In this document: positions 62,355-63,263 of the stretch, piece after piece
Layout: each line of letters opens with the position of its first letter
Numbering within the stretch: the first letter of the stretch is position 1
NCBI RefSeq assembly: GCF_058153355.1
Contig: NZ_CM177019.1
DNA length: 64,000 bases
Reading direction: 5' to 3' (one strand)
Notes under the pieces: model-generated
What the model saw: the letters and a program-made list of their open reading frames with translations, nothing else
What the model was told of the DNA's origin: nothing
The model's database searches: none
Program-made: the position numbers and the translations under genes

Positions 62355-63263
62355 TTACTCTTGTGGCCATAACCACGCAGCGCCGCGTACGCCGCTGGAA
62401 TCACCATGTTTCGCCTTACGCACCGGCGTTTCACATTCGCCGCCGAAGACAAATTGTTTAATCAACTGCGGAACCGTTTGATATAAACGATCTACATTGC
62501 TCATCCCGCCCCCCAACACAATCACATCCGGATCGAGAATATTCACGACATGTGCCAGCGATTTTGCCAGCCGCAGCTCGTAACGACGCAATGCCAACTC
62601 CGCTACCGGATCGCTTTCTTCAACAAGGCGGATAATTTCACTACCTTTCAGCGCATGTCCGCTCAAACGATGATAATCCGTCGCAAATCCCGTACCCGAA
62701 ATAAAGGTTTCAATGCAGCCTTGTTTGCCGCAATAACAAGGGACTTCCTCGCGATAACGCAGTTCATCTTCGTCCATCCACGGTAGCGGATTGTGTCCCC
62801 ACTCGCCTGCCGTGCCATTGCCGCCGATATGCGCTCGACCATTGAACGCTACGCCCGCGCCGCATCCCGTGCCGATAATCACGGCAAATACCGTCTGCGC
62901 TCCCGCAGCTGCGCCATCTACCGCTTCCGAGACCGCCAGACAGTTGGCGTCATTTGCCAACCGCACTTCCCGTTGCAACCGCGCGCTTAAATCTTTATCA
63001 AATGGCTGACCGTTAAGCCAGGTTGAATTGGCATTTTTCACCACGCCAGTGTAAGGCGAAATCGAGCCTGGAATGCCCATGCCTACCGTTCCGCGCTGCC
63101 CTGTCGCCTGCTCCGCCATATCAACCAACGTGGCGATCGTTTCGATGGTCTGATGGTAATCATCACGCGGCGTGGGCAGACGATGACGATACAACTGCTC
63201 CCCTGCATCGCCCAGTGCAATCACTTCAGTTTTAGTGCCGCCTAAATCGATACCTATACGCAC
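62355..63263 (-). CDS. mak: fructokinase / manno(fructo)kinase, ROK family
   Basis: ORF 62355-63401; conserved N-terminus (V)[12 protein letters not shown] begins at GTG 63263, preceded by AAGGAGA. Confidence 0.88.

Follow-up and report, generated by a model that had tools for sequence, protein, structure and literature searches.

The mak locus and its product

The mak gene lies on the minus strand of the window, by which the whole 64,000-nt stretch of DNA analysed here is meant (contig NZ_CM177019.1 of assembly GCF_058153355.1). The window is E. coli sequence in reverse orientation compared with K-12, and window position 63263 therefore corresponds to K-12 position 410144. In the K-12 RefSeq annotation, mak (b0394, NP_414928.2, fructokinase) occupies 410144..411052 (909 nt) with the end of rdgC 124 nt away, and the window gene read from its GTG codon is also 909 nt long. 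A single synonymous base distinguishes the window from K-12 over the start region (~220 nt), in which the GTG at 63263 is annotated as the start. In strain 2013C-4282, whose complete genome is the closest (99.0% identity), PGAP places the mak start at the same codon. The mak gene of that strain (L001 1662-2564) is annotated with 903 nt and stops two codons before the window and K-12 genes; the same start combined with the shorter length points to a polymorphism with an early stop codon in the C-terminal ...WLWPQE tail. The features of the locus are listed below.

62243-62272 and 62297-62329, convergent 3' ends of mak and araJ: REP-type palindromes, inverted repeats with arms GCCTGATAAGACGC / GCGTCGCATCAGGC
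62355..63263, minus strand: mak CDS, 302 codons plus TAA, ROK-family fructokinase/mannokinase, mapping base for base on K-12 b0394 (410144..411052)
62355..63401, minus strand: raw longest ORF over mak, 348 aa, TTG start, beginning MNHSMIIS
63261..63263, minus strand: GTG initiation codon, the start annotated in K-12 and by PGAP and supported by comparative conservation in 80 species
63264..63401, minus strand: spurious N-terminal extension, with in-frame candidate starts TTG 63401, ATG 63389, TTG 63371 and ATG 63350
63270..63275, minus strand: Shine-Dalgarno (SD) sequence AAGGAG, 6 nt (AGTACC) before the GTG, supported by the computed energy of its pairing with the 3' end of 16S rRNA
63288, minus strand: mak transcription start site (TSS), from K-12 410119 forward (b0394), SMRT-Cappable-seq, giving a 25-nt 5' UTR
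63294..63322, minus strand: candidate mak sigma-70 promoter, -35 TTGCCA at 63322..63317, 17-nt spacer, -10 TACGCT at 63299..63294
63345..63350, plus strand: candidate rdgC promoter -10 element TATCAT, upstream of the rdgC TSS at 63358, the hexamer being assigned by inference
63358, plus strand: rdgC TSS, from K-12 410049 reverse (b0393), SMRT-Cappable-seq
63388..64000, plus strand: 5' part of the divergent neighbour rdgC, from K-12 mapping, continuing past the window end

The product is treated in the literature as a promiscuous sugar kinase with about 279 copies per cell (PMC10519446), and the exact 302-aa protein is already in public databases as 'fructokinase [Escherichia]'. Family models and structures were scanned with the full 348-aa ORF as query. 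The NCBIfam fructokinase equivalog NF007108 scored 611.1 bits (cutoff 443) and aligned ORF residues 47-347 to model positions 2-302 of 303, and the Pfam ROK model PF00480 scored 342.6 bits (cutoff 22.9) with ORF residues 49-347 on model positions 2-293 of 294. An N-terminal alignment with ROK kinase homologs, which the initial annotation had named as one check of its start, gave the same picture: the PDB ROK kinases align from ORF residues 44-49, and for NagK, NanK, Glk and AlsK the onset is no more than a few residues from the native N-terminus of each protein. ORF residues 1-35 had no family or structure match in the NCBIfam, Pfam and PDB scans.

The N-terminal segment of Mak, which does not vary among 80 species and corresponds to G(F)D(I/V)GGTK in NagK structures, carries the DxGGT ATP phosphate-binding motif directly after the initiator Met. 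The ROK zinc-binding cysteine motif CxCGxxGC and the preceding His (EWGHNPLP...) are also found in the translation as a predicted zinc site, and this segment aligns with the corresponding segment of NagK. The PDB yielded no structure of Mak itself, and the best match there is NagK (E=8e-61); entry 2ap1, considered as a YajF structure, behaves as NagK and was rejected as such.

Reading the ORF as a ROK transcriptional repressor of the NagC/Mlc type was also rejected, as no N-terminal winged-helix domain was found. The NagC model NF047937 aligned only from position 69 of 399 (76 bits versus a cutoff of 650), which indicates that the DNA-binding domain is absent from the mak ORF, and the Mlc model reached 60 bits versus a cutoff of 530. 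The extension gave no match as an HTH domain, and no Pfam domain was found in ORF residues 1-46.

Several other differences between the window and K-12 were observed. The mak-araJ spacer (62224-62354) is 113 bp shorter in the window than in K-12. Most E. coli genomes match a query of 62200-63500 at only 90-95% identity, which is probably explained in part by variation of the REP spacer. An insertion of ~2.3 kb between cyoE and yajR (21016-22909) carries a TacA-like antitoxin ORF (PF08681) and an overlapping 180-aa GNAT acetyltransferase ORF, a putative TacT-type toxin-antitoxin pair judged by its architecture, and, on the opposite strand, a 339-aa protein with Sel1 repeats and an N-terminus that resembles a signal peptide. 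Between yajO and pgpA (33063-34598), an insertion of ~1.9 kb encodes a 511-aa pentapeptide-repeat protein (PF00805) rich in Asn, Lys and Ile, and it looks horizontally acquired. A third insertion, of ~1.65 kb between acpH and malZ (47561-49006), encodes a 481-aa protein of low-GC-type composition, for which no significant Pfam match was obtained.

The GTG start and its Shine-Dalgarno sequence

The initial annotation had described the raw ORF over mak as 46 codons too long, in agreement with the lengths of the two frames (348 - 302 = 46). The AAGGAGA said to precede the GTG was found at 63275-63269, and the minus-strand sequence around 63280 reads AAAAATAAGGAGAGTACCGTGCGTATAGGTATCGATTTAGGCGGCACT. 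The 18 nt before each in-frame candidate start were paired with the 3' end of 16S rRNA, and the calculated duplex energies are as follows.

GTG 63263: -9.7 kcal/mol
TTG 63401: -3.1 kcal/mol
ATG 63389: +0.4 kcal/mol
TTG 63371: -1.1 kcal/mol
ATG 63350: -1.1 kcal/mol

The background, obtained from 621 random NTG triplets on both window strands, had a mean of -2.1, and about 1% of the triplets were at -9 or lower. For this reason the wording 'strong ribosome binding site' is justified for mak, whose value lies in the top ~1% of the sampled triplets. The mak GTG thus fits a canonical SD-led initiation site, in which a sequence complementary to the anti-SD precedes an NTG codon by 5-9 nt.

The start was compared across 80 Enterobacterales loci, one genome per species, with each tblastn match running from residue 1. 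At the codon homologous to the mak GTG, 75 species have GTG, 3 have TTG and 2 have ATG. The first position of this codon varies among G, T and A while positions 2 and 3 are invariant, and this pattern is expected only of an initiation codon. In 70 of the 80 species, a core complementary to the anti-SD, in most cases AGGAG or AGGA, stands 6-7 nt before the start; the information content is 1.2-1.8 bits for GAGGA at -12..-8 and 0.07-0.5 bits for the spacer at -6..-1. Codon-periodic conservation sets in exactly at the GTG (+1), with an information content of 2.0/2.0/low from +4 on, and over codons 2-60 the means at codon positions 1, 2 and 3 are 1.39, 1.55 and 0.61 bits. The stretch that matches the extension is flat at 0.18, 0.19 and 0.18 bits, without codon periodicity.

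The reading frame upstream of the start was followed in the same 80 species. An in-frame stop occurs within 46 codons in 64 of them, within 9 codons in 37 and within a single codon in 12, and 32 species have no in-frame ATG, GTG or TTG before the upstream stop. A ten-species alignment contains 1-nt indels inside the extension, and among the 78 species (of 80) with the divergent rdgC-mak arrangement, the distances found between the two genes include 123, 124, 125 and 126 nt. Therefore, the frame relation to the rdgC-proximal start candidates is not conserved.

The kinase N-terminus had been placed at the GTG at 63261-63263, and on this position the annotation, the conservation in 80 species, the family models and the K-12 TSS agree. 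Mak had no entry in two N-terminomics supplements. The agreement of the other lines indicates, with hardly any doubt, that mak translation starts at GTG 63263-63261 by ordinary SD-led initiation, and that the extension is a non-coding divergent control region. This start is already known from the reference E. coli annotation and implies no new biology.

The mak-rdgC intergenic region and alternative starts

The extension overlaps the start region of rdgC, as the initial annotation had stated; the overlap is 14 nt, with the rdgC ATG at 63388 (+). The TSSs of mak (410119) and rdgC (410049) are contained in a full-length primary-transcript map of K-12 obtained by SMRT-Cappable-seq (PMC6131387, Supplementary Data 2), which was made with K-12 and not with the window strain; the intergenic sequence is identical and the coordinates are consistent with U00096.3. 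The four upstream candidates all precede the main mak TSS at 63288 and are therefore missing from the main mRNA. There is no in-frame NTG between 63288 and 63263, and the GTG is thus the first in-frame start on the main mak transcript.

TTGCCA-17-TACGCT is a plausible weak sigma-70 promoter for mak, its hexamers being assigned from sequence and from the spacing to the TSS. A generic promoter and terminator scan reported nothing for mak, since the -10 element is weak; the single plus-strand promoter-like match of that scan overlaps the rdgC ATG and was disregarded. The pattern TTGYYA-N17-TACNCT was found in 20 of the 80 species, 30-33 nt from the start codon and within non-periodic blocks, and codon periodicity is likewise lacking in the blocks CTTGCATTGCYAATC and TCTACNCTNTTGATA, which are conserved in Escherichia, Leclercia, Enterobacter, Salmonella and some Citrobacter. 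The block CTTGCATTGCYAATC (63317-63331) lies between the promoters of mak and rdgC and hardly varies among ten genera-level relatives, and its conservation exceeds what a weak -35 element alone needs. It could be a site for a shared regulator or the overlapping -35 elements of the divergent mak and rdgC promoters.

Taken together, these elements give a simple course of mak expression. The main mRNA begins ~25 nt before the GTG (63288), most probably transcribed from the weak sigma-70 promoter, and the AAGGAG 6 nt upstream pairs with the 3' end of 16S rRNA to guide initiation at the GTG. The 46-codon extension is the 124-bp divergent control region between mak and rdgC plus the first 14 nt of rdgC, stop-free in this frame by chance, and it holds the candidate mak promoter together with the promoter, 5' UTR and first codons of rdgC. 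The low expression of Mak may be explained by the weak -10 element plus the GTG start.

An older observation may touch on this promoter. A Mak-derepressing mutation is said to have been described by Sproul et al. in 2001 at position 71 in codon 24, GCC->GAC (Ala->Asp). Codon 24 of the frame that starts at ATG 63389 is GCC at 63320..63318, and we take the mutation to be C->A at window 63319, which changes TTGCCA to the consensus -35 TTGACA. If so, the mutation would fit a gain in promoter strength better than an altered protein.

Three other placements of the start were considered against initiation at the GTG alone. The one that survives best is dual initiation, in which the 302-aa Mak would be accompanied by a minor 331-aa proteoform from ATG 63350, translated from a rare, near-leaderless transcript that begins at 63354. 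This reading is very improbable. It draws on a mak TSS at 409277 (U00096.2) reported by Kim et al. 2012 (PMC3415461, supplementary file 2), which corresponds to window 63354, 91 nt upstream of the start and 4 nt before ATG 63350, and the count field of this TSS is 2, taken as 2 reads. The site is absent from the SMRT-Cappable-seq operon table, and ATG 63350 has no SD sequence (-1.1 kcal/mol). Leaderless initiation is, moreover, poorly served by a leader of 4 nt, which also counts against the idea. An in-frame ATG at -29 codons is present in about 15 of the 80 species; however, the 29 codons after it are conserved in promoter-like blocks without codon periodicity, and the candidate rdgC -10 element TATCAT contains the reverse complement of ATG 63350. 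On the rdgC strand, Salmonella and two species of Citrobacter have TACTAT or TATTAT at this site, so that the -10 hexamer is kept and the ATG is lost. Conservation of the -29 ATG was therefore rejected as evidence for a start codon, because the rdgC -10 element explains it. If dual initiation were true, the start codon of a 331-aa Mak would be embedded in the rdgC -10 element.

The second placement takes the long ORF as the real gene, starting either at TTG 63401 (348 aa) or at ATG 63389 (344 aa, the legacy form), and is very improbable indeed. No stop interrupts the frame over the 50 codons before the GTG, and a 344-aa K-12 protein is present in databases under the names 'unknown [E. coli K-12 MG1655]' and 'putative regulator'. 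The first description of mak/yajF, by Sproul et al. in 2001, reportedly was also of a 1,032-bp, 344-aa gene. However, the 344-aa form is found in 13 contigs versus at least 1000 for the 302-aa form, both start codons lie inside or at the 5' end of the opposite-strand rdgC and upstream of both reported mak TSSs, and neither has an SD sequence (-3.1 and +0.4 kcal/mol). The stops in 64 of the 80 species, the lack of codon periodicity and the lack of any family or structure match over the extension argue in the same direction. The rdgC ATG and the antisense ATG 63389 share one CATG palindrome (63387-63390), and the 'conserved' upstream ATG is thus the mirror image of the rdgC start codon. With this evidence, the long ORF is effectively already refuted.

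The last placement, a true start downstream of 63263 such as the in-frame GTG at codon 14, is close to inconceivable: in-frame NTG codons do exist there with nothing specific in their favour, but such a start would delete the invariant N-terminal phosphate-binding strand and loop, which is conserved at protein level from codon 2 in all 80 species and to which every ROK kinase model and structure aligns with its first residues.

Over-extended starts in the window and comparison with known forms

The extent of over-extension in the raw ORF track was counted with 53 K-12 CDS starts that could be mapped inside the window. The longest ORF extends upstream of the K-12 start in 23 of the 53 genes (~43%). 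All ten genes named earlier as over-extended besides mak were indeed so, namely lon (15 codons), bolA (11), yajG (53), cyoD (27), cyoE (15), yajQ (56), yajO (24), ribH/ribE (32), sbcD (14) and araJ (28). That list was incomplete, and 13 more genes were found: mak itself, yajI (20), tsx (16), secF (15), pgpA (12), yajC (10), rdgC (24), cof (4), ybaE (5), yajR (2), yajL (2), malZ (1) and proY (1). Over-extension is a generic artefact of an ORF track that takes the first NTG after a stop, and is not specific to any gene. With ~43% of the N-termini over-called, the starts need refining before downstream interpretation. A GTG start is found in 7 of the 53 mapped genes, which makes that of mak unremarkable in the window. 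The mak result matters only as quality control.

The wrong start of mak has a history nonetheless, as the 344-aa form persists in some databases. The mak orthologue of K. pneumoniae, KPN_00337 (PMC3415461, supplementary file 6), is annotated with 948 nt versus 909 nt in E. coli, and inconsistent upstream mak starts therefore persist in other genome annotations. A 90%-identity protein cluster that includes Mak has a 452-aa representative, and several of its members are named putrescine/proton symporter PlaP; these names look like a database clustering artefact rather than biology.

The closest known system is mak of K-12 (b0394, formerly yajF; UniProt MAK_ECOLI, 302 aa), which has the same locus, start codon, SD sequence and stop position, with araJ convergent and rdgC divergent as in the window. 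The 124-bp intergenic region is identical in both, and the nucleotide identity of the mak CDS is 94.4%. The two Mak proteins differ by a few amino-acid substitutions (e.g. DDYHQTIE in the window), but not in the start site. The legacy 344-aa YajF, called 'putative regulator' or 'possible NagC-like regulator', is the same ORF read from ATG 63389. It includes 42 non-coding codons, and the extension supplies no HTH or other domain. The ROK sugar kinases NagK, NanK, AlsK and Glk (PDB 7p7i, 4db3, 2ap1, 3vov, 2qm1, 6jda and 3htv) share their fold family with Mak and differ from it in sugar specificity. Each of them begins within a few residues of DxGGT, as Mak does when it is read from the GTG.
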